Positions 195 through 17,904 are shown, counted from the stretch's first letter. The stretch is DNA of 26,837 nucleotides from Methanobacteriota archaeon (GCA_034722635.1 JAYEOC010000108.1:1-26837); one strand, 5' to 3'. A program made the numbers and translations. Notes: generated by a model from the letters alone, not told the origin.

Positions 195-584
195 TCAAGC
201 GGATTTTAGAATATTCACTATCTCTTCTGCCGTCTTGGTCCAGTCTGCGGCCTTGCTTAGTGTCCCTTTTGCACCCGCATCAAGTGCGTTTCTCTCTACC
301 TCGGTTCCCGCATAAGCGGTGAACAGGTAAATGTTTGCTGCCGGATCGTCATCCATTATCTTTCTGGTTGCTTCCACACCGTTCATCACCGGCATCTTGA
401 TGTCCATAAGCACGAGGTCGGGCTTCTTACCCCTGTTTGCCAACTTGCTGTACTGCTCAACACCAGCCTTGCCATGCCGGGCAGAATGCACTGTGAACGT
501 ATGCAGCTTGTGCTTCATCAGATAAAGTGGCAGAAGTGTGTGAAACTGTTCTTCATCTTCCACAAGCAAGATAATATAGTCCAT
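195..584 (-). CDS. Single-domain response regulator (CheY-like receiver), paralog of 4790..5179
   Basis: 129 aa with LLVEDEE acidic pocket, LVLMD phospho-acceptor, FTAY and conserved Lys (SK). GAGGGGG SD-like sequence upstream. 84/129 residues identical, without gaps, to 4790..5179 by hand alignment. Confidence 0.95.
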   Translation of the reverse strand: MDYIILLVEDEEQFHTLLPLYLMKHKLHTFTVHSARHGKAGVEQYSKLANRGKKPDLVLMDIKMPVMNGVEATRKIMDDDPAANIYLFTAYAGTEVERNALDAGAKGTLSKAADWTKTAEEIVNILKSA

Positions 585-603
585 TTCTATCCCCCCTCTT
601 CTC

Positions 604-2934
604 TTAATAAACCTCGTCCTTTAAATAGCTTCCCGTCAGCGCATCCCGTGTCAGTTTCTGGACTTCATTGTTCCTTTCGCGTATTGTCCGAAGCATCTCT
701 CTTTGCTCGTCATCCAGATTGCGTGATTCCAGCATCAACTCGATATATCCACCCATTACCGTCACCGGCGTGATGATTCTGTGTGACGTCTCCTTTAGAA
801 AATGCTCTCTCAAACTATAAGCTCTCGTTATCTGCTCTTTCGAGTCTTCAAGCAGTTCTACATGTTCTTGCAATGACCGAGCCAGGAGTTTCAATTGCTC
901 TTCCGCAAGTTTGCGTTTGGTTACATCGCGAAAAATCGTTAATTTTGATATTGTACCGTCAACATGTCTCATTGGCGTCTCAATAATGTCGTAAGTCTTG
1001 TTCATTCTGGGTGAGTACCATTCCCACTCCACTACCTTTCTTTTCTGCACCTCCGCGATTTTGCAATTGGTGCAGGGTTCGTCTCTGTTATGAATCACGT
1101 CATAGCAAGTCCTACCGGTCCCATCTCCTAGTTCATTAATCAATGCCTTGTTCATAAACTCGATTTTATAGTCCTTCGACACCATGTACACACCATCAAC
1201 CATGCTTTCAAATATCTGATTCATGTTGTCCCGCTCTGCTTTTATCCGCTCCATCAGCGCCACTTCTTTTGTTACATCTCTGCTCACACGGACTGTGCCA
1301 ACGGGTACGCCATTTCGGTCCTTCAATAACGCCACGGAAATGCTGATCTGCACAGAGTGTTTATTTTTATTCAGCACCGTTGTTCTGTAATTTTTAAGCG
1401 TGCCTTCTCTCAGCACTGTTTCCATTATGCTGATCGCTTCTTCGGATTCCGCGTAAAATCTTTTGTTTGATCTCCCAACCACCTCCTCCGCTGTATAACC
1501 CATGTAGTCCTCTGCACCTTTATTCCACTCTCGCACAATTCCGTCCATATCCACAACAACAATCGCATCTGCAGAACTCTCAATTACATTGTTCAGATAC
1601 GCTTCTGTTTCTCTCAACTGCCTCTCGGACTCTGCCAGTAGCACATTCGCACGTTTACGCGCTTCTTCTAGCTCCATATTGTGCAGCGCAAACGCTATGT
1701 TGCCCGCCACCTTAATCAAGAGTTCCTTTTCCTCTTCACTTACTGTGACTCCGGCTGCAACCGATATGGCAAGCAACCCGAAAAGCCGGTCTGCGTGCTC
1801 GACACGGATGAGCACCGTTTTTGTACCCGCGCATGTATCTTTGAATACACAATCTTCGTTGTCGCTGGCTTTGTCCTGGACTATAAGCGGATCTTTCTGT
1901 GCAAGTGCATTCGTGATGCAAGGCGGGAAATCCCCGGCCTTCAAATGTTTACAAAAACGTGCGACATCGTCCATTAAACAGGAACCCTTGAGTGTGGTAA
2001 ATCTCTTTCCATCCTTTAAAAGTCCAACCCATGCGGCATCGTAGTTTCGTGCATCTATCAGGGCATTGCAGGCTTTCTGGAGCAGACGGTCCCTGTCCTT
2101 CTCAACCAGAATTAACTGATCCACATTCATGATGGCTTTGAGGACTCTGTTTAAGTGCTCTATGCGTTCTTCAGCACGCTTACGCACCGTGATGTCTTTT
2201 GAAACTACCGTTACCGCCCTAACTCTGCCCATTTCGTGTGTTTTAACCGGACTTAGTGTCTTGATGAAGTATTGTCCCTCGCTATTTTCATATTCGTGCT
2301 GAACCGATGCGCCGGTGTTAAAAACGTGTGTTACCTTCTCTGCAAACCCTTTCGCATCATCATCCGAATGAAACGCGCGGTATGGTTGTCCTAAATATTG
2401 ATCGCTTGACAAGCTCAACCGTGATATATGTTTCTCGTTCATGAACAGATACCGGCAATTCTTGTCCACGAGATATACAGAATCTTTTGTGGACTCGACA
2501 AGGGAGCGGTACCTCTCTTCGTTCTTCTGCAAAGCCGTTTCTGCTCTTCTTTTCGCTTCTAGCAGTTGATATGCGTCAGAAGTCCTTTTTACCGTTGATA
2601 GCAACTCTTCCAGGTTCATCGGTTTCTCGATGTAACAGGAAGCACCGGCTTTTAACGCTTCTATCGCCGTCTCCTTGGATGCAAACGCGGTGACTATGAT
2701 AGGTGCGGTGTCAACGTTGATACTTTTTAGTCCTTTTACCACCTCTAATCCTGTAATGTCCGGGAGCTTCAAGTCCACCAGGCAAATAGGGTACGTTTCT
2801 TTCTTTGCAATCGCTAAAGCCTTTTTACCCGTTCCTGCTGTCGTTACCTTGTAACCTTCATCAACAAGAATATCGCTTAGCGTCTCACGCATCTCCGCAT
2901 CATCTTCAACGATGAGAATGGATGTGTTATTCAT
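604..2934 (-). CDS. REC-PAS-GAF-PAS-PAS-DHp(HisKA-only) signalling protein lacking a HATPase domain
   Basis: N-terminal receiver (VEDD...CLVD...TA...KP), three PAS domains ending KDIT/RDVT/RDVT, one Cys-rich GAF, and a C-terminal ETSHRIITPV H-box helix pair followed by the stop. No N, G1, F or G2 boxes. Confidence 0.9.
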   Translation of the reverse strand: MNNTSILIVEDDAEMRETLSDILVDEGYKVTTAGTGKKALAIAKKETYPICLVDLKLPDITGLEVVKGLKSINVDTAPIIVTAFASKETAIEALKAGASCYIEKPMNLEELLSTVKRTSDAYQLLEAKRRAETALQKNEERYRSLVESTKDSVYLVDKNCRYLFMNEKHISRLSLSSDQYLGQPYRAFHSDDDAKGFAEKVTHVFNTGASVQHEYENSEGQYFIKTLSPVKTHEMGRVRAVTVVSKDITVRKRAEERIEHLNRVLKAIMNVDQLILVEKDRDRLLQKACNALIDARNYDAAWVGLLKDGKRFTTLKGSCLMDDVARFCKHLKAGDFPPCITNALAQKDPLIVQDKASDNEDCVFKDTCAGTKTVLIRVEHADRLFGLLAISVAAGVTVSEEEKELLIKVAGNIAFALHNMELEEARKRANVLLAESERQLRETEAYLNNVIESSADAIVVVDMDGIVREWNKGAEDYMGYTAEEVVGRSNKRFYAESEEAISIMETVLREGTLKNYRTTVLNKNKHSVQISISVALLKDRNGVPVGTVRVSRDVTKEVALMERIKAERDNMNQIFESMVDGVYMVSKDYKIEFMNKALINELGDGTGRTCYDVIHNRDEPCTNCKIAEVQKRKVVEWEWYSPRMNKTYDIIETPMRHVDGTISKLTIFRDVTKRKLAEEQLKLLARSLQEHVELLEDSKEQITRAYSLREHFLKETSHRIITPVTVMGGYIELMLESRNLDDEQREMLRTIRERNNEVQKLTRDALTGSYLKDEVY

Positions 2935-2977
2935 ATATATCCCTATTTGTCGTTCTTAAAAATAAAACTTTCCTAAT

Positions 2978-4756
2978 TCAACCCTGTGAAAGCGGTAACG
3001 TAAAACAAACAGTGCACCCTTTACCCTTCTCGGACTCTATCCAGATGCGACCTCCATGCACATATATTATCCGTTTCACGATTGCGAGCCCCGCACCAGT
3101 ACCCATGCTATCGGTATCCACCTTATAAAACAAATCGAACACCTTCTCGTGCTTATTCCTGTCTATCCCAATCCCATTATCCGCCACAAAAAAAACGGTT
3201 GCATCGCTTTCTACCCGGTACCCGAACTCTATTTCTGGCTGCGGTTGCTCACCCATGTAATTTATGCTGTTTGTTATAAGATTCACAAGCACCTCGACTA
3301 TCCTCATCCGGTCAACATGAACAGCCGGAAAGTCATCTGCCACTGATAGTTCTACACCACTCGAATTTAGTTGTTCCCGTGTTTGTTCCTGTGCTTCTCG
3401 AACAAGTTCAAAAAAAGGCACATCTTCCGCGGGATTCGCCACACGACCAATGCGCGACAGTTCTAACGTGTCATTCAGAAGGTTATTCATCTTTGTAACC
3501 GTAGTTTCTATGTACTTCAAATCGCGTTCTACACCTTCCGCTTCTTTTTGTTTCAAATCGTCTCGTAGCAAACCCGCAAAACCGCGAATCGAGACAAGAG
3601 GCGCTTTCAGGTCGTGCGAGACGGTATAAGCGAAACTATCCAGCGCAGTGTTCTTTACTTCAAGCTCTTTCAGGAGGTTTTCTCGTTCCGCCTCCCTCTG
3701 CTTCTGCTCGGTGATGTCTCTATGATTCGCCATATGTGCTATAACGTTGCCTTCATCATCCATTACTCTTGACGAAGATACAACTATTGGAAATAGAGTA
3801 CCATTTTTTCTCTTCGCAATTAATTCCCCCGTCCATCCCTCTTCCAATGTTGTCCTAAGTGCCTCTTCCAGCTTTGGTATTTGATCCTCAGAATATATGG
3901 TGGCAATCTCGGCCCCGATTAACTCTTCTCTTGAATAGCCGAACATTTTAGTAAACGTTTCATTCACATATGTAATCCTACCCTTGAGATCGCCCATAGC
4001 CATGCCATCAATCGAACTGTCCACAGAATGCGAAAATAGTCTCAGTTTTTCTTCTGTCTTCTTACGCTCGGAGATGTCTCGTGCAACAGCAAGCCTGCCA
4101 CTGGGCTGCCCGTCCGAGTCCAATATGGTGGTGACGTTTAATTCTATGGGTAGTCGCTTTCCATCCTTAAGCAAAAGCTCAATCTCATAAAGCGCAATTG
4201 TTTCACCGGAAAGCCCTCTTCTGAAGCGTTCAACCGTGGATTCACGGTATTCAGGGGCAATAACTTCCGTAAAGTGATGTCCTATTACATCCTCCGGAAG
4301 GTAACCGGTAGCCTCTTCAAATCTTTGGCTGAGATAGGTAAACTTGCCTTCCGTATCTAAAGCAACCACTACATCGTGTATGTTTTCAACTACTGTCCGG
4401 TATTTCTCCTTCTTCTTCCGCAGTGTCTCCTCAGCCTTCGCAATCTGCTCGCTTAGCATAGCAACTACAAAAGCGACAATTACAAACATAAGAGCGCGAA
4501 TGAAGTCGTATGCCGGGGCTACTGACTCACTAGGCAAGGTGCAGTGGCTAAGTATCAGCAGTGCAGCTAAAAAAATCGCCACAACTAAACCATTCCGTTT
4601 CCACCACATCGCAGCTAAAATAATCGGAATGTAAAAGAAATGAGTAAAAACAACGCAGATTGACAATACCGTATGAAAATAATACGTGATAACGCAACAA
4701 ATACCTAAAAGAAATGCCATTATCATACATTTGTATTTGCCGTCCAGTTCTATCAT
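2978..4756 (-). CDS. Membrane-bound sensor histidine kinase (about 4 TM helices, PAS-PAS-HisKA-HATPase)
   Basis: Hydrophobic N-terminus (HFFYIPIILAAMWW), two PAS domains, H-box SHDLKAPL, N-box NLITNSINY, G1 DNGIGI, F-box VFDLF, G2 GTGAGLAIV. Confidence 0.95.
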   Translation of the reverse strand: MIELDGKYKCMIMAFLLGICCVITYYFHTVLSICVVFTHFFYIPIILAAMWWKRNGLVVAIFLAALLILSHCTLPSESVAPAYDFIRALMFVIVAFVVAMLSEQIAKAEETLRKKKEKYRTVVENIHDVVVALDTEGKFTYLSQRFEEATGYLPEDVIGHHFTEVIAPEYRESTVERFRRGLSGETIALYEIELLLKDGKRLPIELNVTTILDSDGQPSGRLAVARDISERKKTEEKLRLFSHSVDSSIDGMAMGDLKGRITYVNETFTKMFGYSREELIGAEIATIYSEDQIPKLEEALRTTLEEGWTGELIAKRKNGTLFPIVVSSSRVMDDEGNVIAHMANHRDITEQKQREAERENLLKELEVKNTALDSFAYTVSHDLKAPLVSIRGFAGLLRDDLKQKEAEGVERDLKYIETTVTKMNNLLNDTLELSRIGRVANPAEDVPFFELVREAQEQTREQLNSSGVELSVADDFPAVHVDRMRIVEVLVNLITNSINYMGEQPQPEIEFGYRVESDATVFFVADNGIGIDRNKHEKVFDLFYKVDTDSMGTGAGLAIVKRIIYVHGGRIWIESEKGKGCTVCFTLPLSQG

Positions 4757-4789
4757 AAGGTCACCAGATCATAAACTTATACTTCGGTT

Positions 4790-5179
4790 TCACGTGGATT
4801 CCAGAATAGTCACAATCGTGTTTACCGTCTTGTACCAATCCGAGGATTTGCTTATTGTACCTTTTGCACCGGCATCGAGCGCTTCTTGTTCTACCTCGGT
4901 ATTTGCGTAGGCGGTGAACAGGTAAACGTTTGCTTTCGGGTCGTTAGCCATTATCCGTATAGTTGATTCCACACCGTCCATCACCGGCATTCGGAGGTCC
5001 ATAAGCACGAGGTCGGGCTTCTGCCCGTTTACTGCTAGTTTGTTGTACAGATCAACCCCTGCCGCGCCATTTTCGGCTGAATGCACAGTAAAAATATGCT
5101 TCTCGTGCCGCACAAGAAAAAGTGGCAGTAGTTTGTGAATCGGTTCTTCGTCATCCACAATCAAGACTGTGTAGTCCAT
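4790..5179 (-). CDS. Single-domain response regulator (CheY-like receiver), paralog of 195..584
   Basis: 129 aa with IVDDEE, LVLMD, FTAY and SK motifs. Starts 3 bp after the stop of 5183..6184. Confidence 0.95.
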   Translation of the reverse strand: MDYTVLIVDDEEPIHKLLPLFLVRHEKHIFTVHSAENGAAGVDLYNKLAVNGQKPDLVLMDLRMPVMDGVESTIRIMANDPKANVYLFTAYANTEVEQEALDAGAKGTISKSSDWYKTVNTIVTILEST

Positions 5180-5182
5180 TTT

Positions 5183-6184
5183 TTATTCCACATACTCCTT
5201 TAGATACTTTCCCGCTAACGCATCCGTCACCAGTTCCTGTATCTCCTTGTTTCTTTCGCGTATGATTCTAAGATACTCTTTTTGCTGGTCGTCAAGATCG
5301 GCGGATTCCTCTAACAAATCGGTGTATCCTCCGATAATCGCCACCGGAGTGATAATTTGGTGTGACGTTTCTTTTAGGAAGTGTTCTCGCAATCTATAAG
5401 CAGCTTTTACCCGCTCTTCTGCACGTTTGCGCTCTGTGATGTCCCTGGTAGCACCCTGTATTCCCACCGGATTTCCAGCCGCATCAAATAGTATCTTAGT
5501 AGCTATCTCAACATCTATCTTCTCGCCATTCTTATGCCATAGTTGCATTTCAAACGTTACACCACTCGCTTCCTGACCTTTCTTCAGTCCCTCCTTCGCG
5601 GCATTCAAACAAAAAGCCATATCTTCCGGCGAACAATGCTCATATAACGAACTTCCAACCCATTCTTCAGGCGTAAACCCAACCATTTGAAGAACAGAAG
5701 GATTGACATACTTAAATTCAAAGTCCAAATTCATTAGCCAGATACAATCAGCAGTGTTATCTGCCAGTAGATGATACATCTCCTCACTCGCTTTTAATTG
5801 CATCTCCGCTCGGCATTTGTAAAGCCCCATCTCGATGGACGCGAAAAGCTGCCGTTCCTGAAACGGTTTAACAAGATAAGCATACGGTTCGGTGCTTTTC
5901 GCTTTCTCTATCAGCCAAAGATCCGTGTATGCCGTCAGAAATATAACCGGAATATCGGTCTTCTCTTTTATCTCGTGCGAAGCGTCAATGCCGTTTTTAT
6001 GCCCTATCAGCACAATATCCATCAATATCAAATCAGGCATAAGCGAAACCGCCTTTTTCACTGCCTCATCTGCGCTGGCGGCACGACCCACCACCTCGTA
6101 ACCTACATTGGTAACCACCATTTCCAGGTCTTCTGCCACGATAGCTTCATCTTCCACGATTAAGATACGCGCCTTTTTTGCCAT
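5183..6184 (-). CDS. REC-PAS-DHp(HisKA-only) signalling protein lacking a HATPase domain
   Basis: Receiver (VEDE...LMD...LTAY...KPF), one PAS ending RDIT, and a C-terminal ETSHQIITPV DHp. Stop lies 58 aa after the His and there is no catalytic domain. Confidence 0.9.
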   Translation of the reverse strand: MAKKARILIVEDEAIVAEDLEMVVTNVGYEVVGRAASADEAVKKAVSLMPDLILMDIVLIGHKNGIDASHEIKEKTDIPVIFLTAYTDLWLIEKAKSTEPYAYLVKPFQERQLFASIEMGLYKCRAEMQLKASEEMYHLLADNTADCIWLMNLDFEFKYVNPSVLQMVGFTPEEWVGSSLYEHCSPEDMAFCLNAAKEGLKKGQEASGVTFEMQLWHKNGEKIDVEIATKILFDAAGNPVGIQGATRDITERKRAEERVKAAYRLREHFLKETSHQIITPVAIIGGYTDLLEESADLDDQQKEYLRIIRERNKEIQELVTDALAGKYLKEYVE

Positions 6185-6386
6185 TTTTACACCTATTGCG
6201 TTCGTTTAACTCTATAATACATGACCCCGCACTCACATCTGTCAAGACAACCGCAGAGCTGAGCGAAATAGGCACGCCAAAAATCAGTCGCCCCTTCCCC
6301 CACCGTATCTCTTTTAGTGTCATATAGGTTATATCATAGGTGGTAGTAGCACCATATATAACTTTCGGATACATTTCAGGTGGAGC

Positions 6387-6478
6387 TTACAGGTGCCAAT
6401 GCTGTAGCAATTCAACACTGGCTTGCATAAATTCTTTTGTTCGCTCTTCGACTTGCTCTTTTATCTCTTTCCACTCAT
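6387..6478 (-). pseudogene. Possible remnant of a gene start encoding a signalling-helix-like segment
   Basis: ATG overlaps the TGA of 6475..8037 (ATGA) with GAGGT upstream. It reads MSGKR*, but adding one A to the A-run gives MSGKEIKEQVEERTKEFMQASVELLQ, resembling the (L)EQRVEERTxEL coiled-coil of kinases. Confidence 0.35.
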
Positions 6479-8037
6479 TCTTCTACCTCGAACGCTATTG
6501 TAAATGTTGTTCCTTTCTCGCTTATGATCTCCAGTTTTCCCCGTAACTGGTCTTCCACAAGAATTTTTACCAGATGCAGCCCAAGAGTTTTCGTTGTATT
6601 GAAGTCGAATCCTTCGGGTAGTCCAACGCCGTCATCACTTACGGTCAGACAAACCGCACCTTCTTCCGGTGCCGAGAGACTAACCTCGATCTTACCTTCC
6701 GCCCTGTTCACAAAAGCATGTTTAAATGCGTTTGTTAACAATTCATTCACAACTAACCCGAAAGGTACAGCAATTGAGATTGGAAGTGTAAAGTCAACTA
6801 CATGAACAGCCGGCGTGATTTTTGTATCGCGAACCCGGTAACCCATGAACAATTGCCGTATCAATCCATCCACAAACCCCTTCATGTTTATCTCAGATAA
6901 GTTTCCGCTTTCGTACAGTTTCGTATGTATAAGTGCCATTGTATTTATCCGGTCTCTTGATTCTAAGAGTACCGCACTCGTATTAGCGTCTTTGGCTGCG
7001 CGTGCTTGCAGATTCAGCAGGCTCGATATGACCTGAAGGTTGTTCTTTACGCGGTGATGTATCTCCAGCAACAGCACCTCTTTCTCTTTTAGGGATGCTT
7101 TTAGCTGCTCTTCCGCCTGCTTCCGTACCACTTCCAGCTCCATGTCGTGGAGCCCAAACGCAATATCTCCCGCCACTTCCTCCAGCAGTCCCTTCTCTTC
7201 TTCGTCCACTGCGACATCTGGTGCAAGCAATACCGCAAGCAACCCGAAAAACTTTCCGGCATGTTCGACACGAATAATCGCAGCTTCTTTGCCGACACAA
7301 GCGTCTTTGAAGACGCAATCACCGCATTCCCTGGTTTTGTCCAGAACTACAAAACTGTCTTTTTGTGCAAGCGCGTTTTTTATGCACGGCGGATGATCAC
7401 CACCCAGCACATGTTCACAGAAACGAGTAACGTCTTCACGGAAGCCGGAACCCTTGACGGTGGCAAAAGCTTCGCCATCTTCTAAGAATCCGAGCCATGC
7501 GGCATCGTAGCCCCATGCTTCTGCCAGAGTATCGCAGGCGTTCTGCAACATAGTATCACGGTCTTTCTCCATCACAATCAACTGATTTACACCCCTGATG
7601 GCTTTGAGGACGCTGTTCAGATGCTTGATGTGCGTTCCCGTCTTCTTGCGCTCGATTGCGTAGCGTATGGTACGTACCAGTAACTCGCTGTCCAGTTTGT
7701 TCTTAGGCAGATAGTCCTGTGCACCCTCTTGCACTGCCGCAATAGCAAGTTCGGCATCGTCTAGACCCGTCAGCATCACGATTGGCACATCTGGTACTTG
7801 CGCGTGTACAGTGATGAAAGTGTCCAGCCCAGAACTATCCGGCAGTCCGAGGTCCAGCAGAACCGCATTTATATCTGCTGCGGCAAGGCGCTCCAGCCCT
7901 GTTGAGAGCCTATCCGCTTGCTCCAGTGCGAACACAGAGTCACCTGCTTCTGACAGCATCTCCTGTATCAAACGTGCGTCTCCCGAGTTATCTTCAACCA
8001 GCAGAACCTTTATCCTGGTAGCGTGCATAAAGTTCAT
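6475..8037 (-). CDS. Hybrid REC-GAF-HisKA_2-HATPase histidine kinase
   Basis: Receiver LLVEDN...LLDLGLPD, Cys-rich GAF, HisKA_2 H-box [12 protein letters not shown]-box [24 protein letters not shown]. Start overlaps the stop of 8034..8477. Confidence 0.95.
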
Positions 8038-8477
8038 TTGTTTCCATCGAGTGGCAATTTCACTATCGTAAACCAGAACTCTTCGATAGACCTAACTACC
8101 GTGATGAACTGGTCCAGATCAACAGGTTTGGTGATATAACAGTTCGCATGCAGGTCATAGGCTTTGAAGACGTCCTCTTCTGCCTTTGAGGTAGTCAGCA
8201 CAACCACGGGGATGCGTTTCAGGTCGGAATCCGCTTTGATCTCTGCGAGCACCTCACGACCATCTTTCTTCGGCAGGTTCAAATCGAGCAGTACTAGATC
8301 AGGTCGCGGCGCATCCGTATAACTCCCGACTCTACGCAAGAACGCCAAAGACTCTAAACCATCCTCTACCACATGCAGGTTGTTGTGCAGTTTACCGTCT
8401 CTGAGTACTTCTCGTGTCAGACGCACATCGCCGGGGTTGTCTTCTACCAACAAAATCTCTATCGAGTTTCCTATCAT
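8034..8477 (-). CDS. Rcp1-like single-domain response regulator
   Basis: [27 protein letters not shown] and [10 protein letters not shown], the typical partner of SHDLQEP-class kinases. Confidence 0.95.
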
Positions 8478-8582
8478 TTCTTACTCCATTTTCGTAATTC
8501 TGTCTTTGTGATTCGCTTATAAATATGCTCTTTATACGATCCTGGTGCATTCGCTTTTCATAACCCCAATAGTCATCATATA

Positions 8583-8711
8583 TTAAAAAGGTAGGGTTGC
8601 TAATCCGTATTGCTCTTCCTTATAAAATCCCGCTGGCGTCTCATAAGCCCAAACCACTATCTCCCGAACTTTATTCAAAACCTCTAAATCCTTAACGCTT
8701 TTGATGTTCAT
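8583..8711 (-). pseudogene. Truncated four-helix-bundle (23S IVS protein/Avd-like family) N-terminal fragment
   Basis: [42 protein letters not shown] matches the family N-terminus pattern (KSFxDLxV...Y...FPKEExYGL). It stops before the conserved RRAAVSIxxNIAEG helix and overlaps the last 20 bp of the upstream kinase. Confidence 0.65.
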
Positions 8712-11568
8712 GTTGCGCGGTTCTTTTCGATCCCCGACCTGGAATGGTAAAGGAAAAGGTTGTGCCTTTCCCGTGTTCTGACTCCACCCAGATCCGTCCG
8801 CCGTGCTGCTCCACGATCTTCTTGCATACCGCAAGCCCGATGCCTGTACCCGAATACTCGCCCCTGCCATGCAGCCGCTGGAATATCACAAAGATGCGGT
8901 CGAAGAATTCCGGCTCGATCCCGATGCCGTTATCGGCAACCGAAAAGACCCATTCATCCGCTTTTTGCTCTGCCGAGATGTGAATATGCAGAGGCTCTTC
9001 GCTACGGAACTTAATGGCATTACTTACCAGGTTCTGAAACAACTGAACCAGTTGTGAAGCGTCTGCTATTACGGTCGGCAGTGCATCGTGGGTCACCACC
9101 GCGCCGCTCTCTTCGATCGCCACTTTCAAATTGGTAAGCACCTGCTCAAGGACAGCTTCGCAGTCTGTCGGCTCGAATGGTTTGCCGTGTGTACCCACAC
9201 GCGAAAATGCCAGCAAGTCATGGATCAGCGTTTGCATTCGATTCGCGCCATCCACAGCATAACCTATGAACTCGTCCGCGTCAGAATCGAGTTTGCCTTT
9301 GTAGCGCCTCTCAAGAAGCTGTACATAGCTTGACACCATACGCAAAGGCTCCTGCAGGTCATGAGACGCGACATAGGCAAACTGCTCCAGTTCGGCATTA
9401 GAATGTTTCAGATCTGTTACGCTCTGGCGCAGCGCCTCTTCGGCACGTTTGCGCTCTTCATCCAGTTCCAGGGCATGAATAGCAAAAGCAATATCTTCGG
9501 CTACTTCTTTGAACAAGCCTTGCTCTTCCTTATATACAGCGAGTTCTGCAGGGACTGCAACAGAAAGCAGACCATAACCCTTTCCCTCATGTTCCAACCG
9601 GATGGTCATTGCCTTTCTGCCTTCATACAATTCCACGAGAGGACAATCTGTGCAGGTGGAGACCGGATCATCAATTACTATAACCTCTGATTGTGTAAGC
9701 GCCTTCTGAGCGCATTCGGTCAACTCTCCCTGTTTCAGTCGAGTGACCATAAGCTCAAATGACTCCCCCAATCCTGCTTCGGCAGAGGTTACAAGTCTTC
9801 CTGAGTCATCCAATAGAGCTATCCAGGCGCTATGATAGCCGCGAGTCTCGATTAGATTATTACAAGCACCTTGAAGCAGCCTGCTGCGATCTTTTTCCTT
9901 TGTGATAAGTTGATTAACATTTCGTATGGCACGTAGCACAAGGTTGAGATGTGCCATCCTTTCCTCCAAATGCTTGCGTTCGCTGATGTCACGTGCAACC
10001 ACCAGCAGACGTTCACGCCCCCCAACGACTGCGCTCTTCATACTTAGTTCCTCCCAGAACAGATGTCCGGATTTGTGTTTAGCCATCCATTCAAAGACCT
10101 GCGGCCTCCCTGCTGCGGCCTTATTCATCCACTCGGTGGCTTCTTCCTGGGTGTACGGCACTTCGCCCATGCTTATGGTTTGCACATCGAGTCTGCTGAA
10201 TTCCTCGCGGGTATATCCGTACATCTCACACGCCGCGTTGTTGACGTTAAGGATTGCTCCGGTCTCTATGTCCTGGATAAATATCGCATCATTGATCGAA
10301 TCGAAAATCGTCCGAAACCGATCCTCACTCTCGCGCAGCGTATTCTCCGCTCGCTTACGCCTTGATATATTCACAATAAGGCCGATGATGATCAACGTTT
10401 GCAGGATTATAAATGCAATTATAGCCCAAATCAGCGCTTTGTTCTCTGCATAGAACGAGTGCGGTTTGTTGACAACGATACTGTCTTCGGGCAGGTCGGA
10501 AACCTTGACACCCCACCGCTGCAACTGCTCGTAATCAAACATATATTGGGTTTGTGGTTCTGTTAAAACAGGAATGTCCCGCACCTTTTCCCCCATCAGG
10601 ATGCGCTTTGCCATCTCTGCTGCGATCTGACCATGATAAAAACCGCCAAACAGTTTACCACCAACGATACCATAAGGCAAAACCTGGACAGAATAGCCAT
10701 ACATTGGCCGTGCACTTGCTTTTGATACGCGCGCGACAGCTTCTTCGAAGGAGTAATACCTTCCCGACTTATCGCGATTGTATGTCACAAAAAGCACTAT
10801 GGTATCATCGGATAATTTGCTTACCTCATCCTCTATCTGCTCCAGGGATAAACATTCATCTATACGGGTCATCCTGACATCTTCGTAATATTTGAAAAGC
10901 TCTTGTATCTGACCCCAGAGATATTCCCCCGTAGGTGTGTTGTCAACAACAAAGACTATTTGCTTAGTCCCCGGATGCAAATTTAAACCAAGGTCTATTG
11001 TTTCTTTTATCGATTGAAGCTCAATAATCCCTGTAAATTCGTCTGGATCTATAAGAGCAGGAGCTTCAAGATTATTTACTCCGCAGAACACTACTGGCGT
11101 ACCTGGAAATAGATCTTTATGATACTCACGGAGAAAATTGAATGCGTTATCATCGGAAGATATAATCAAATCAAATGTTTGGTTGCCGTATTTATACTTA
11201 TACAAGTCATATAATTTCTCTTTGTACTGACTATCATATTTTGTGGCTTTAGAATCCATATATTCTATCCTAAGCTCAATGTTGTTTTCTTCGGGTTTTA
11301 TGATTGATTCTATCCCTTTTACAATATTGTCCGTCTGAACAAAACCTTTGTTATACGAATTCAGCACGAGCACTCGTCTCGTCTGCTCCTCCTGTGCATT
11401 CGCTACCGGGATAAAGACGGAGAGGCTAATAATAAGTGCGATGCTAATAAAAGCAAAAAATATAACTGGATGGCTGTGTATATTCTCGCGTGTGCTTGCC
11501 ATATCGGCTTTGTGTGCTTCTGATTCATGCCACAGATAAAGTGCATCTTTATACTTATTGGGCGTCAT
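8692..11568 (-). CDS. Membrane sensor histidine kinase: extracytoplasmic ABC-substrate-binding-like domain, TM, PAS, GAF, HisKA (SHDLQEP class), HATPase
   Basis: Signal/TM segment ([15 protein letters not shown]), VLVLNSY...EYMD periplasmic-binding-protein-like domain, second TM ([16 protein letters not shown]), [46 protein letters not shown]. True start may be the ATG at 11502. Confidence 0.93.
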
Positions 11569-16127: not shown

Positions 16128-16964
16128 CTATGTCCCAACCCTTATTGGATATGAGATCCTCTTCAGCGTTGCGATCGCGGAAAGAGCGGCTAAATAGCTC
16201 GTCTTCGGATTCGTAGCAGACGGGACGTTTTCCACCCGCACGAACAGTTTCCCGAATTCGCCCTGCACTTTTACTTCATGCACGTTCTTCCTTGCCGTTG
16301 GATCCGCAACTATCTTCACTCTCGTTGCTTTTGATCCTATACCAGCAAGGCTTAAAGCAGCAGCTACATTCACGTTCTCGGGGAAATATTTCACCGCTTC
16401 CTTCGCGTTACCCACGAACAACGTTTCCGCTCGCTCTAAAGAAGACAAATCTAGTCCTTTTGCTTTTACGTACTCATTTCCTTCAAAACCACGTGGCGGT
16501 TTTATTGTCGTCAACTCTATCGAGTCTATCCCCGCCATAGCCCCTGATTTTATGCCGTCCAGTCCCGCTACCGCACCGGAGGGGATATAGACCTTACAGC
16601 TTTTCTCCTTCGCGATGCGTTCTATCTCCTCATAAAGGCCTTCAATACAGAGCAATGCACCAACGCTCAGTATCATTACATCCTTACCCGACCTCAATGC
16701 GGGTATCACAAACTCACGAACCGCATCTTGCGATGCACACTCTATTACCAGATCCACATCCTTTAAAATCGCTGCCAGCCCGTGGCTATCAGATTTGGTT
16801 ATCGCAGGCTTCTTCTTCAGGCTTGCATACAGGCGTTCTATATTCTCGGGATGGTTATCAATCAAAAAAATCAGTTCCATCGCCATGTCATCCCCATCTA
16901 CCGCCTTGCATATCTCGCTGCCGATAGCACCGCAGCCAATTACACCCACTCTTATTTTTTCCAT
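16128..16964 (-). CDS. nadX: L-aspartate dehydrogenase (NAD biosynthesis)
   Basis: GCGAIG Rossmann motif, ECASQDAV, LSVGAL, PSGAVAGLD, FPENVNVAAAL, NVHEV and NPKTSYLAA motifs. Divergent from nadC. Confidence 0.93.
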   Translation of the reverse strand: MEKIRVGVIGCGAIGSEICKAVDGDDMAMELIFLIDNHPENIERLYASLKKKPAITKSDSHGLAAILKDVDLVIECASQDAVREFVIPALRSGKDVMILSVGALLCIEGLYEEIERIAKEKSCKVYIPSGAVAGLDGIKSGAMAGIDSIELTTIKPPRGFEGNEYVKAKGLDLSSLERAETLFVGNAKEAVKYFPENVNVAAALSLAGIGSKATRVKIVADPTARKNVHEVKVQGEFGKLFVRVENVPSATNPKTSYLAALSAIATLKRISYPIRVGT

Positions 16965-17073: not shown

Positions 17074-17904
17074 TTGCAAATGCTGCTAAGAGAGATAGAA
17101 AGTTTTCTGGAAGAGGATGTAGGGCATGAGGATTACGAGGATATAGTGCCATATACTGAATGTAAAGCGGAGATAACGGTGCGAGCAGAAGGCGTCCTTG
17201 CAGGTTTGGACGAGGCAAAACAGATATGTGACTATCAGAATGTTAATTATTCCTCGGAATTTGAAGAGGGGGATCGAATAAAGCGTGACGATACTATTTT
17301 GACTGTGTGGGGCGCAGGAGCGAAGATATTGAAGGTGGAACGGTTGGTGCTAAATTTCATGGGTCGAATGAGTGGCATTGCTACTTTAACAAGCAGGTTT
17401 GTAAACGATGCAAGACACGTAAATGCAGCGATAAAAGTGGCAGGTACGCGGAAGACGACACCGGGGTTTCGGAAATACGAGAAGAAAGCGATAACTGTCG
17501 GGGGCGGTGACCCGCACAGATTCGGGCTATACGAAACGGTACTAATAAAAGATAATCATATAATGCTGATGGGCCTGGAGAACGCGATAAAGAAGGCAAA
17601 AGCGAAGGTTAGCTTCACACGGAAGATCGAAGTGGAAGTAGAAAGCCTGGAAGATGCGCTCAGGGCGGCGGAATTGAACGTGGACATAATCATGCTGGAT
17701 AACATGAAATCCAGAGAAGTGAAAGAGTGTGTGCGTATGCTGACGGAGAAAGGCTTCCGAGACGGTGTGATTTTAGAAGCTTCGGGTGAGATAACACTAG
17801 ATAATATACAGGAGTTTGCAGCTACGGGCGTTGATGTCGTATCAAGTGGTATGCTTACACATTCTGCTACGTGGCTGGGCCTCTCATTGCATGTTGTGGA
17901 ATAG
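17074..17904 (+). CDS. nadC: Nicotinate-nucleotide pyrophosphorylase (quinolinate phosphoribosyltransferase)
   Basis: TRKTTPG, HRFGL, IKDNH, EVEV, MLDN, EASG and VDVVSSG motifs. Start is TTG 17074 or ATG 17080, with GGAG upstream. Confidence 0.97.
   Translation: MQMLLREIESFLEEDVGHEDYEDIVPYTECKAEITVRAEGVLAGLDEAKQICDYQNVNYSSEFEEGDRIKRDDTILTVWGAGAKILKVERLVLNFMGRMSGIATLTSRFVNDARHVNAAIKVAGTRKTTPGFRKYEKKAITVGGGDPHRFGLYETVLIKDNHIMLMGLENAIKKAKAKVSFTRKIEVEVESLEDALRAAELNVDIIMLDNMKSREVKECVRMLTEKGFRDGVILEASGEITLDNIQEFAATGVDVVSSGMLTHSATWLGLSLHVVE

Follow-up and report, generated by a model that had tools for sequence, protein, structure and literature searches.

The window, the whole stretch of 26,837 bases that was analysed, comes from a methane-oxidising ANME-1 archaeon and carries a row of eight two-component genes, all on the same strand (Table 1). 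Six of these had been described in a first-pass annotation, and all six are found on the minus strand at the coordinates it gave. It was equally exact on the missing ATPase domains, the His codons, the 58 residues that follow the His and the two identity counts (45/69 and 84/129) given below. The gene cluster itself is larger than the six genes, since a further receiver and a further kinase, k3, which stands at its head, extend the row to eight.

The 147-residue receiver shares 4 bases with the beginning of P0266, the HisKA_2 kinase, which sits 290 bases upstream of P0002. Only 3 bases separate the stop of P0002 from the start of sREC2, and 19 bases separate the stop of P0001 from that of sREC1. 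P0267 is placed between the two pairs, 33 bases past sREC2 and 43 bases ahead of P0001. Downstream of sREC1, the window runs on for only another 194 bases to base 1, where the contig ends as well.

Table 1. Two-component genes in the window, with domain matches and H-box motifs.
Gene product	Position	Strand	Domains and remarks
sREC1, single-domain receiver, 129 aa	195-584	-	Pfam REC
P0001, DHp* protein 1, 776 aa	604-2934	-	Pfam REC-PAS-GAF-PAS-PAS-HisKA
P0267, complete membrane kinase	2978-4756	-	Pfam DUF4118-like TM region-PAS-PAS-HisKA-HATPase_c; H-box SHDLKAPL
sREC2, single-domain receiver, 129 aa	4790-5179	-	Pfam REC
P0002, DHp* protein 2, 333 aa	5183-6184	-	Pfam REC-PAS-HisKA
P0266, complete kinase	6475-8037	-	Pfam REC-GAF-HisKA_2-HATPase_c; H-box EIHHRVKN
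Single receiver, 147 aa, outside the sREC subfamily	8034-8477	-	sREC HMM score only 22 bits
k3, complete kinase	8692-11568	-	ABC_sub_bind-PAS-GAF-HisKA-HATPase_c; H-box SHDLQEPL

A clade of sensors ending in a bare HisKA hairpin

P0001 and P0002 both end in a HisKA hairpin, here called DHp*. The Pfam HisKA model (PF00512, gathering cut-off 26.9 bits) scores 36.4 and 40.8 bits in the two proteins, while neither has a Pfam match to HATPase_c. A profile search of the PDB with DHp* matched HisKA kinases only, such as 7z8n, 4jas and SrrB. There is no Pfam match to the Hpt domain (PF01627) in the eight cluster proteins and none to SPOB_a in the DHp* proteins, in which nothing follows helix 2. The AF2 model of P0002 consists of a REC domain (residues 1-120), a PAS domain (147-248) and two helices (250-294 and 299-323), after which the protein ends. 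The His is residue 718 of 776 in P0001 (codon 781-783, CAC) and residue 275 of 333 in P0002 (codon 5360-5362, CAC), so that 58 residues remain in each, and the last 69 residues of the two proteins are identical at 45 positions. Their H-boxes read KETSH-R-IITP in P0001 and KETSH-Q-IITP in P0002, with Arg and Gln, respectively, at H+1 and Thr at H+4 in both. Neither has the acidic residue at H+1 on which autophosphorylation of HisKA kinases depends.

An HMM of this tail, which scores 148 bits in P0002 and 140 bits in P0001, was searched among 1.84 billion representatives. The DHp* sequences make up a separate clade, with about 37 clusters (50% identity) that score at least 82 bits; ordinary kinases follow at 74 bits or below. 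None of the ~37 clusters runs on into an ATPase domain, and all of the hairpins are C-terminal: at most 19 residues (median 4) follow the DHp match in the clade, compared with a median of 406 in ordinary kinases. The end point had been described as exactly 58 residues past the His, which is right for the two paralogs; across the family it falls 54-66 residues after the His in about 90% of members. The suggestion that the truncation was selected and did not arise by decay has held up, as every member of the clade stops just past DHp helix 2. All MAGs in which the family was found belong to ANME-1 or ANME-2.

The clade has a diagnostic H-box, E-T-S-H-R-I-I-T-P. The His and the Pro at H+5 are invariant, and Glu is present at H-3 in 36/36 clade representatives. 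H+1 is Arg in 35 of 36 and Lys in the remaining one, whereas it is Glu or Asp in 172/174 ordinary HisKA domains. Thr occupies H+4 in 36/36 representatives, a conservation that is not separable from that of its surroundings because the whole H-box is invariant; in ordinary HisKA domains, the same position is Thr or Asn in 172/174. In HisKA kinases, the acidic residue at H+1 is needed for kinase activity only and the Thr or Asn at H+4 for phosphatase activity only, while the requirement for the His in phosphatase activity is variable and not strict (Willett & Kirby 2012, PMC3510030). Substitution of H+1 in CrdS by A, D, G or Q in all cases gave a kinase-dead but phosphatase-competent protein, and the outcome was the same for H+1 Ala in HK853, HK4262 and HK1190 (PMC3510030).

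The N-terminal REC is missing from about half of the DHp* members, whose inputs are instead PAS only, PAS-GAF, TM-GAF-PAS, dCache-HAMP or membrane domains. REC-fused and REC-less members nevertheless make up one sequence family. Where the REC is present, a single N-terminal REC subfamily stays with DHp* while the middle domains differ. Its E11/D12, D56, T84 and K106 are nearly invariant (at least 90%; 18 REC-fused proteins, alignment A4), and a 19-row alignment (A1), which contains a non-REC fragment of P0001, gives the same picture save for K106.

The conserved unit is a pair

The two downstream receivers, sREC1 and sREC2, are identical at 84 of 129 positions without gaps. They belong to a distinct subfamily, with sREC2 scoring 269 bits against the sREC HMM and generic receivers 14-44 bits, and D10/E11, D61, T89 and K111 are invariant among 29 homologs. 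An sREC gene directly follows 36 of the 40 distinct DHp* genes, mostly after a gap of 2-22 bases. The DHp* tail and sREC occur together in 21 of 79 genomes of the class; one genome has only the tail, four have only sREC and 53 have neither. The DHp* and sREC trees are largely congruent, and their terminal clades match. The conserved unit is thus a pair, consisting of a sensor that ends in a bare HisKA hairpin and its dedicated sREC. In some DHp* loci (L001, L050, L052 and L053), dual-REC proteins are found as well.

A kinase is frequent in the neighbourhood of the pair but not obligatory. In many relatives, the nearest 5 kb contain no kinase; this is so at each of the 11 ANME-2 loci, which are bare two-gene pairs. 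The two kinases that precede the pairs in the window come from different families, P0266 being a HisKA_2 kinase with its own N-terminal REC and P0267 a membrane HisKA kinase. Orthologs of P0267 occupy the same position only within the genus (L042, L043 and L048). L048 also carries an ortholog of P0001, equal to it in length. HisKA_2 kinases lie near the pair at eight loci from several genera; at seven they have an N-terminal REC and lie upstream (the window, WIN, and L040, L042, L044, L045, L052 and L001), and at L036 the kinase has no REC and lies downstream of sREC. Other sREC paralogs are found directly upstream of complete, k3-related HisKA kinases, and the DHp and CA domains of k3 are 74-81% identical to those of kinases that, in sister genomes, immediately follow unlinked sREC paralogs. 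With k3-type kinases beside sREC paralogs and P0267 after sREC2, kinases able to charge the sREC family are thus available.

These observations change the unit that had been proposed for the locus. The first-pass annotation described a repeated triad of kinase, hybrid and REC, which gives way to the DHp*-sREC pair, since the upstream kinases are unrelated and many loci are kinase-free. It asked whether the tail is always terminal, fused to a REC and followed by this REC subfamily; the tail is indeed terminal and sREC does follow (36/40), but REC fusion is seen in only about half. Two of the findings that would have spoken against its reading, homologs that continue into HATPase and a lack of conserved synteny with the REC, did not occur.

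What DHp* may do to its receiver

DHp* may well be a non-autophosphorylating, sensor-gated protein that removes phosphate from sREC~P, either as a phosphatase or as a phosphate drain; this appears the most likely reading at present. The lost kinase residue, the kept phosphatase residue and the kinase-type inputs together lean towards a phosphatase. DHp* would be unable to charge itself from ATP and would contact sREC through the usual kinase-regulator interface, under the control of the fused upstream sensor, which in the window comprises a phosphorylatable REC together with PAS/GAF domains. Complete kinases, for example P0267 or those of the k3 type, would supply sREC with phosphate, and sREC~P would then be dephosphorylated by Thr-assisted hydrolysis. 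Phosphate might also be transferred back from sREC to the His and, in REC-fused members, onward to the N-terminal Asp. Inputs typical of sensor kinases, as in the REC-less members, would be more readily expected of a phosphatase switched by signals than of a passive shuttle. However, the absolute conservation of the His and the adjacent basic residue would also suit a phospho-histidine intermediate.

The same two features, an invariant His and a conserved basic H+1, are in keeping with a forward relay, which is less likely but a serious alternative. Here, phosphate would pass from a complete kinase to the N-terminal REC of the hybrid, on to the His of DHp* and finally to Asp61 of sREC, gated by the PAS/GAF domains; this would equal a sensor-equipped, single-chain Spo0F plus Spo0B. 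The phospho-acceptor residues are intact in both the N-terminal REC domains and sREC, one REC subfamily is kept with DHp* despite the changing middle domains, and a HisKA_2 kinase recurs beside the module at eight loci, in seven with its own N-terminal REC. The transfer from RedD to RedE provides a precedent for Asp-to-His transfer onto an HK-like DHp (PMC2755868). However, with about half of the family REC-less and the ANME-2 loci reduced to bare pairs, the internal Asp1 is not a property of the family, which thus cannot as a rule work through a step from Asp1 to His2 within the chain. Many loci have no adjacent kinase, and the two putative first kinases belong to unrelated families. The known DHp-type shuttles, Spo0B and ChpT, are not known to have sensor domains, and in P0001 the five domains between REC and DHp would probably make transfer within the chain sterically demanding.

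DHp* might also work without any phosphoryl chemistry, by dimerising or docking and thereby sequestering or scaffolding sREC, with the sensors setting its availability. Proteins of the REC-(PAS/GAF)n-HisKA type have been suggested to act through dimerisation and protein-protein contacts (Galperin et al., PMC5847659), and single-domain receivers operate through partner binding. This is nevertheless improbable, as no cluster departs from the His, Thr and Pro of the H-box and the catalytic residues of sREC are all invariant, a degree of conservation that would not be expected from pure docking.

There is also a slim chance that DHp* is one half of a split kinase, receiving its phosphate in trans from a separate protein with an ATPase domain and then donating it to sREC. 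The partner could be the neighbouring HisKA_2 kinase, since such kinases recur beside the module and the Glu at H-3 and Arg at H+1 are common to DHp* and the neighbour's H-box (E-x-x-H-R), although this likeness is of two residues only. Alternatively, it could be of the H-box-less MsmS/RdmS kind; H-box-less kinases of Methanosarcina hydrolyse ATP, and a different partner has been put forward as their phosphorylation target (PMC11784639). Against this, loss of the acidic H+1 abolishes HisKA autophosphorylation (PMC3510030), no stand-alone ATPase-domain gene is conserved next to the module at the loci examined, and many loci have kinase-free surroundings.

Decayed or mis-assembled kinases, whose ATPase domain would have gone in recent times or through a contig or frameshift error, can practically be dismissed: in one sister genome (L042) the ortholog of P0001 is split among three frames and is missing its first 235 residues, but the tail is the best conserved stretch of the protein, stops only 3 and 19 bases ahead of the receiver starts leave no space for a decayed ATPase domain, and the distribution of the family, with an end point shared by ~37 clusters (50% identity) and 40 ANME-1 and ANME-2 loci, refutes this explanation. 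P0001 and P0002 are intact genes, not remnants.

Relation to known systems

Spo0B of Bacillus and ChpT of Caulobacter are kinase-derived hairpin dimers in which a His relays phosphate between receivers without autokinase activity. They keep a degenerate, CA-like α/β domain and are not known to carry sensor or REC domains, whereas DHp* matches HisKA, not SPOB_a, ends after helix 2 and bears kinase-type sensors. Phosphatases provide a second comparison. Domain A of EnvZ, an isolated DHp, is reportedly a phosphatase on its cognate regulator, but this is a laboratory fragment, while DHp* is a natural and conserved CA-less protein. A bacteriophytochrome of Deinococcus is a phosphatase-only sensor kinase whose phosphatase is switched by signal; there the CA domain is kept.

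In the “four-component” system RedCDEF of Myxococcus xanthus, the complete kinase RedC charges the receivers, and RedE, an HK-like protein incapable of autophosphorylation, takes phosphate from the receiver RedD and dephosphorylates the stable single-domain receiver RedF (PMC2755868). The putative action of DHp* on sREC resembles in its logic that of RedE on RedF, as a functional analogy only; the sequence relationship is limited to the HisKA fold. The dual-REC proteins in some DHp* loci are another likeness to RedCDEF; in the window, by contrast, DHp* has a receiver and sensors on the same chain. RedE also presumably keeps an ATPase-like domain, while DHp* is without one.

The architectures of P0001 and P0002 fit a class already catalogued by Galperin et al. 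(2018), archaeal REC-(PAS/GAF)n-HisKA proteins without HATPase_c; the same census lists a “HisKA, no HATPase” class, exemplified by AF_1472 (PMC5847659). Both classes are experimentally unexplored, with suggested roles in phosphotransfer or as phosphatases (PMC5847659), so that “undescribed”, the word first used, is too strong for the arrangement. The census, however, deals with architectures only, whereas DHp* is a sequence clade that is confined to ANME-1 and ANME-2 and is recognised by a diagnostic H-box, a fixed end and a dedicated receiver subfamily encoded just downstream. DHp* and sREC together thus represent a conserved ANME module within a catalogued but functionally unstudied class of proteins.

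The gene cluster in the window

The first-pass annotation had read the cluster as six ORFs, forming a twice-repeated triad of kinase, REC-sensor-DHp hybrid and single receiver that would act as a forward phosphorelay. All six ORFs were confirmed, but the cluster is larger than was proposed, as a further receiver and the kinase k3 also belong to it.

Features of the signalling cluster and unassigned neighbouring ORFs in the window (domains by Pfam)
Feature	Position	Strand	Domains and remarks
sREC1	195-584	minus	REC
P0001, 776 aa	604-2934	minus	REC-PAS-GAF-PAS-PAS-HisKA
P0267	2978-4756	minus	membrane-PAS-PAS-HisKA-HATPase_c
sREC2	4790-5179	minus	REC
P0002, 333 aa	5183-6184	minus	REC-PAS-HisKA
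P0266	6475-8037	minus	REC-GAF-HisKA_2-HATPase_c
Additional receiver	8034-8477		4-base overlap with the start of the HisKA_2 kinase P0266
k3	8692-11568		counted as the fourth complete kinase; heads the cluster
ORF, 169 aa	11720-12229	minus	no Pfam match
ORF, 620 aa	14265-16127	minus	no Pfam match

The two hybrids, P0001 and P0002, lack an ATPase domain by Pfam and end in a bare HisKA hairpin, here called DHp*. Both stop 58 residues after the histidine (His718 of 776 and His275 of 333), which is encoded by CAC in either gene (781-783 and 5360-5362). The identities reported earlier between their tails (45/69) and between the receivers that follow them (84/129) were reproduced by BLASTP. These dedicated single-domain receivers, sREC1 and sREC2, begin 19 and 3 bases past the stop codons of P0001 and P0002, respectively, so that no sequence has been lost after the hybrids through a frameshift. 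As modelled by AlphaFold2 (mean pLDDT 82.6), P0002 has a REC domain followed by a long connecting helix, the PAS domain and two helices (residues 250-294 and 299-323), after which the chain ends. The genes within 6184-195 are separated by 3, 33, 43 and 19 bases, with 290 bases to the HisKA_2 kinase P0266; judged by this spacing, 6184-195 looks like one unit.

Three of the signalling proteins have a GAF module in common, located approximately at 1595-2184 (P0001 residues 251-447), 7150-7560 (P0266) and 9470-9890 (k3), which carries a flanking LN.VLKAI..V.QLI..EKDRD motif and several cysteines. The P0001 copy is 56% identical to the GAF domain of a HisKA_2 kinase at a related locus, L042. Divergent NAD biosynthesis genes, for aspartate dehydrogenase and quinolinate phosphoribosyltransferase, adjoin the cluster (16128-16964, minus, and 17074-17904, plus).

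The DHp* family and its receiver

Homologs of P0002 include many REC-PAS-HisKA proteins of 333-358 aa without HATPase_c (47-87% identity), as well as REC-HisKA proteins of about 205-212 aa. By far the best-conserved part of the alignments is the last ~80 residues, with the consensus AYSLREHFLKETSHRIITPV.IIGGYTDLLLES.NLDD.QKE.IRIIRERN.EIQKLV.DALAGKYLEEE. A search of 1.84 billion representatives with a profile built on this tail gave about 37 clusters at 82-151 bits; in each, the match reaches the C-terminus, leaving at most 19 residues (median 4). The next match scores 74 bits, and all lower ones are long kinases of the ordinary kind, in which the DHp is internal and a median of 406 residues follows the match. 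Among 40 distinct DHp* genes from genomes, about 90% end 54-66 residues past the histidine. Because every one of these clusters ends at the hairpin, the continuation into HATPase that had been named as grounds against the proposal does not occur in the clade.

What precedes the hairpin is variable. Pfam identifies PAS-DHp*, triple PAS-DHp*, TM(DUF4118)-GAF-PAS-DHp*, TM-HAMP-DHp*, dCache-HAMP-DHp* and PAS-GAF-DHp*, along with REC-REC-PAS-DHp* and REC-PAS-PAS-GAF-DHp*. Roughly half of the members have no receiver domain, and the REC fusion, which was taken to be part of the architecture, is therefore not a conserved feature of the family.

Contigs with the family are labelled Methanophagales/ANME-1, ANME-2 (Ca. 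Methanogaster and Methanosarcinales MAGs), “Halobacteriota” and, in one case, Ca. Syntrophoarchaeum, a genome that GTDB places in the window’s family. Within the window’s class, the module is found only in its own family (21/65 genomes, including 7/7 of the genus), and a sample of 347 genomes from the phylum’s other families gave no match at E ≤ 1e-15. The MAG to which the window belongs measures 1.04 Mb and is 51% complete.

With an HMM made from the two downstream receivers of the window, the ORF immediately behind the DHp* gene scores 170-270 bits in almost all loci, compared to 14-44 bits for other receivers. This sREC comes next after 36 of the 40 distinct DHp* genes, mostly at a distance of 2-22 bases, and the predicted synteny with the receiver is thus conserved. 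All 29 aligned sRECs keep the acidic pair, Asp61, Thr89 and Lys111 without exception. The residues at D+2 (R/K) and T+2 (Y) were considered as marks of a long-lived phosphate, an idea that was dropped since the source offers general rules only. Among the 79 genomes that make up the class, DHp* and sREC occur together in 21 and are both absent from 53; a DHp* fragment occurs alone in one and sREC alone in four, two of these being fragments. As related genomes do not count as independent observations, these numbers are descriptive.

The same terminal groups appear in a tree built on the DHp* tails and in one built on the sRECs, although the alignments are short and support is weak. The first pair of the window (P0001 and sREC1) groups with L048 and L036 and the second (P0002 and sREC2) with L042-L044 in both trees, and on this basis the two would be paralogous pairs of long standing whose members have not been separated. 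Covariation across 34 DHp*-sREC pairs gives only a hint of contact: interface-like positions are among the top pairs (e.g., DHp H+12 with sREC residue 20), in a small sample dominated by the ANME-1/ANME-2 split. When two DHp* copies were folded with the N-terminal REC of P0002 and sREC2, an “other chain” control, in which the N-terminal REC was replaced but the DHp was still present, scored as high as the real complex, so that the formal outcome of “no support” is neutral as to binding.

The conserved unit and neighbouring kinases

The unit that is duplicated and conserved is the DHp*-sREC pair and not the triad, because the “first” kinases of the two triads belong to different families; nor is the adjacent kinase conserved. 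P0267, the membrane kinase, is found in its position only within the window’s own genus. A HisKA_2 kinase lies near the pair in eight loci from several genera; seven of these kinases are upstream and have an N-terminal REC, usually with a small or dual receiver before them, while the one in L036 lacks REC and is downstream of sREC. All 11 ANME-2 loci are bare pairs, consisting of a PAS-GAF-DHp* gene of 643-650 aa and an sREC gene, with no kinase or further receiver within 5 kb of the pair. L004 and several ANME-1 loci are likewise bare pairs.

Genomes of the window’s genus have 2-4 sREC copies compared to 1-2 DHp* genes. An unlinked third sREC paralog is found directly upstream of complete PAS-HisKA-HATPase kinases (L090:2843-6560 and L092:4614-7586), whose DHp and CA domains are 74-81% identical to those of k3. 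A HisKA_2 kinase comes after sREC in L096 and L036, and P0267 starts 33 bases after sREC2. Since unlinked copies and sREC2 adjoin complete kinases, the sREC family thus occurs in classical regulator-kinase pairs as well.

Some loci have unusual arrangements. L095 encodes, at 3846-5873 (minus), a 675-aa receiver with a long HEAT/PBS-lyase repeat array, an unusual output, which has a REC-PAS-HisKA-HATPase kinase on one side and an sREC paralog on the other. In L049 (622-4924), tandem dCache-HAMP-DHp* and REC-PAS-DHp* genes are followed by one sREC; the 275-aa ORF between them has a PAS fragment and weak matches to SPOB_a and HATPase_c. In L042, from the sister genome G047, the P0001 ortholog (6734-8521) is spread over three reading frames and lacks its first 235 residues, being either a pseudogene or an assembly error, and is followed by tandem sREC genes (8559-8945 and 9104-9484).

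H-box, mechanism and relation to known systems

The H-box of the clade is distinctive. Among 36 clade representatives, H+1 is Arg in 35 and Lys in one (in P0002 it is Gln), and H+4 Thr, H+5 Pro and H-3 Glu are present in all 36. Of the nearest 174 ordinary HisKA domains, 172 have Glu/Asp at H+1 and 172 have Thr/Asn at H+4, and H-3 is mostly Asn. Willett and Kirby (PMC3510030) found, in CrdS, HK853 and two more HisKA kinases, that the acid at H+1 is required for kinase activity only and Thr/Asn at H+4 for phosphatase activity only. Substitution of H+1 in CrdS by A, D, G or Q abolished kinase activity and left phosphatase activity intact, and Ala had the same outcome in the other three. Because of these substitutions and the residues of the clade, the natural H-box of DHp* appears to be of the “kinase-dead, phosphatase-competent” type, which fits with the missing ATPase domain.

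DHp* thus lacks both an ATPase domain and the autophosphorylation residue, but retains the histidine as well as the Thr used for phosphatase activity. A single receiver that can be phosphorylated is its genomic neighbour and is inherited along with it, and its inputs are of the kinds that switch sensor kinases. DHp* would dock sREC at the usual DHp-receiver interface, where its sensors would control the outcome. Our tentative preference is that DHp* acts as a phosphatase or phosphate drain for sREC. Complete kinases would charge sREC, and DHp* would strip the phosphate when the inputs permit. This would occur through Thr-assisted hydrolysis, possibly with back-transfer to the histidine and, where a REC is fused, onward to its Asp. 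For the members without REC, about half of the family, such a role is the most parsimonious; it matches the H-box chemistry and is what a bifunctional kinase might be expected to keep after losing its CA domain. A precedent is RedE acting on RedF (PMC2755868), and Galperin et al. (PMC5847659) raise a phosphatase role as a possibility.

A forward relay in REC-fused members such as the two of the window, from kinase to N-terminal Asp, DHp* His and sREC Asp, with PAS/GAF domains gating the His step, is a less likely but serious rival; DHp* would then be a genuine second-histidine phosphotransferase. In its favour, the histidine is invariant and has a basic residue beside it, a single N-terminal REC subfamily stays with DHp* despite differing middle domains, and HisKA_2 kinases recur, most of them REC-fused. 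An obligatory internal relay is not supported, as the REC fusion is not conserved. If true, no earlier multi-step phosphorelay of archaea would have used a naked HisKA hairpin in place of an HPt domain, and no earlier relay would have had a histidine shuttle with sensors of its own. The phosphatase and relay readings are not mutually exclusive, because RedE does both in the RedCDEF system (PMC2755868).

That DHp* has a purely structural role is improbable. A split kinase is more improbable still: no conserved stand-alone ATPase-domain gene was found beside the module in the DHp* loci examined. The idea is barely kept alive by a likeness to HisKA_2 that may be only a curiosity, in that the H-boxes of DHp* (K-E-T-S-H-R/Q, at 5348-5374) and of the HisKA_2 kinase P0266 (L-E-I-H-H-R, at 6990-7020, within EIHHRVKN) have Glu (H-3) and Arg (H+1) in common, positions at which ordinary HisKA has Asn and Glu. 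Decay or an assembly artefact was rejected as the origin of the DHp* genes and has virtually no chance of being correct; the discrete, always-terminal clade confirms that the truncated architecture is selected. Of the earlier interpretation, selection and the DHp-REC partnership thus stand, while the triad and the obligatory relay do not.

The module has so far been found only in the anaerobic methane-oxidising archaea ANME-1 and ANME-2. To our knowledge, there are no genetic systems for ANME archaea, and their regulation is almost unknown; a literature search on two-component systems in ANME found nothing relevant. The family offers a good experimental way into archaeal signalling and a well-defined test case: the clade is small and sharply bounded, its cognate receiver is unambiguous, its H-box is naturally of the “kinase-dead, phosphatase-intact” type, and a fused receiver is present in some members and absent from others.

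DHp* does not belong with Spo0B/ChpT, as it has no SPOB_a match in Pfam and no alpha/beta domain and does have sensor domains; membership of P0001 and P0002 among HPt proteins was likewise rejected by Pfam. The architecture is not undescribed, as had been claimed: REC-(PAS)n-HisKA (18 proteins, e.g., AF_1472) and “HisKA, no HATPase” are listed as archaeal classes in PMC5847659. According to that paper, no protein of either class had been studied, and they might serve as phospho-acceptors, in phosphotransfer or as phosphatases. In archaeal signalling, “HisKA, no HATPase” and REC-(PAS/GAF)n-HisKA proteins have been catalogued but are a blank as to function. The present analysis newly delimits a discrete clade that is restricted to ANME and marked by a diagnostic H-box and a fixed end point. 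It also identifies the cognate receiver family, unites REC-fused and REC-less forms in one family and re-parses the gene cluster. On present evidence, the DHp* family is a well-bounded member of a catalogued class and not a new kind of system.
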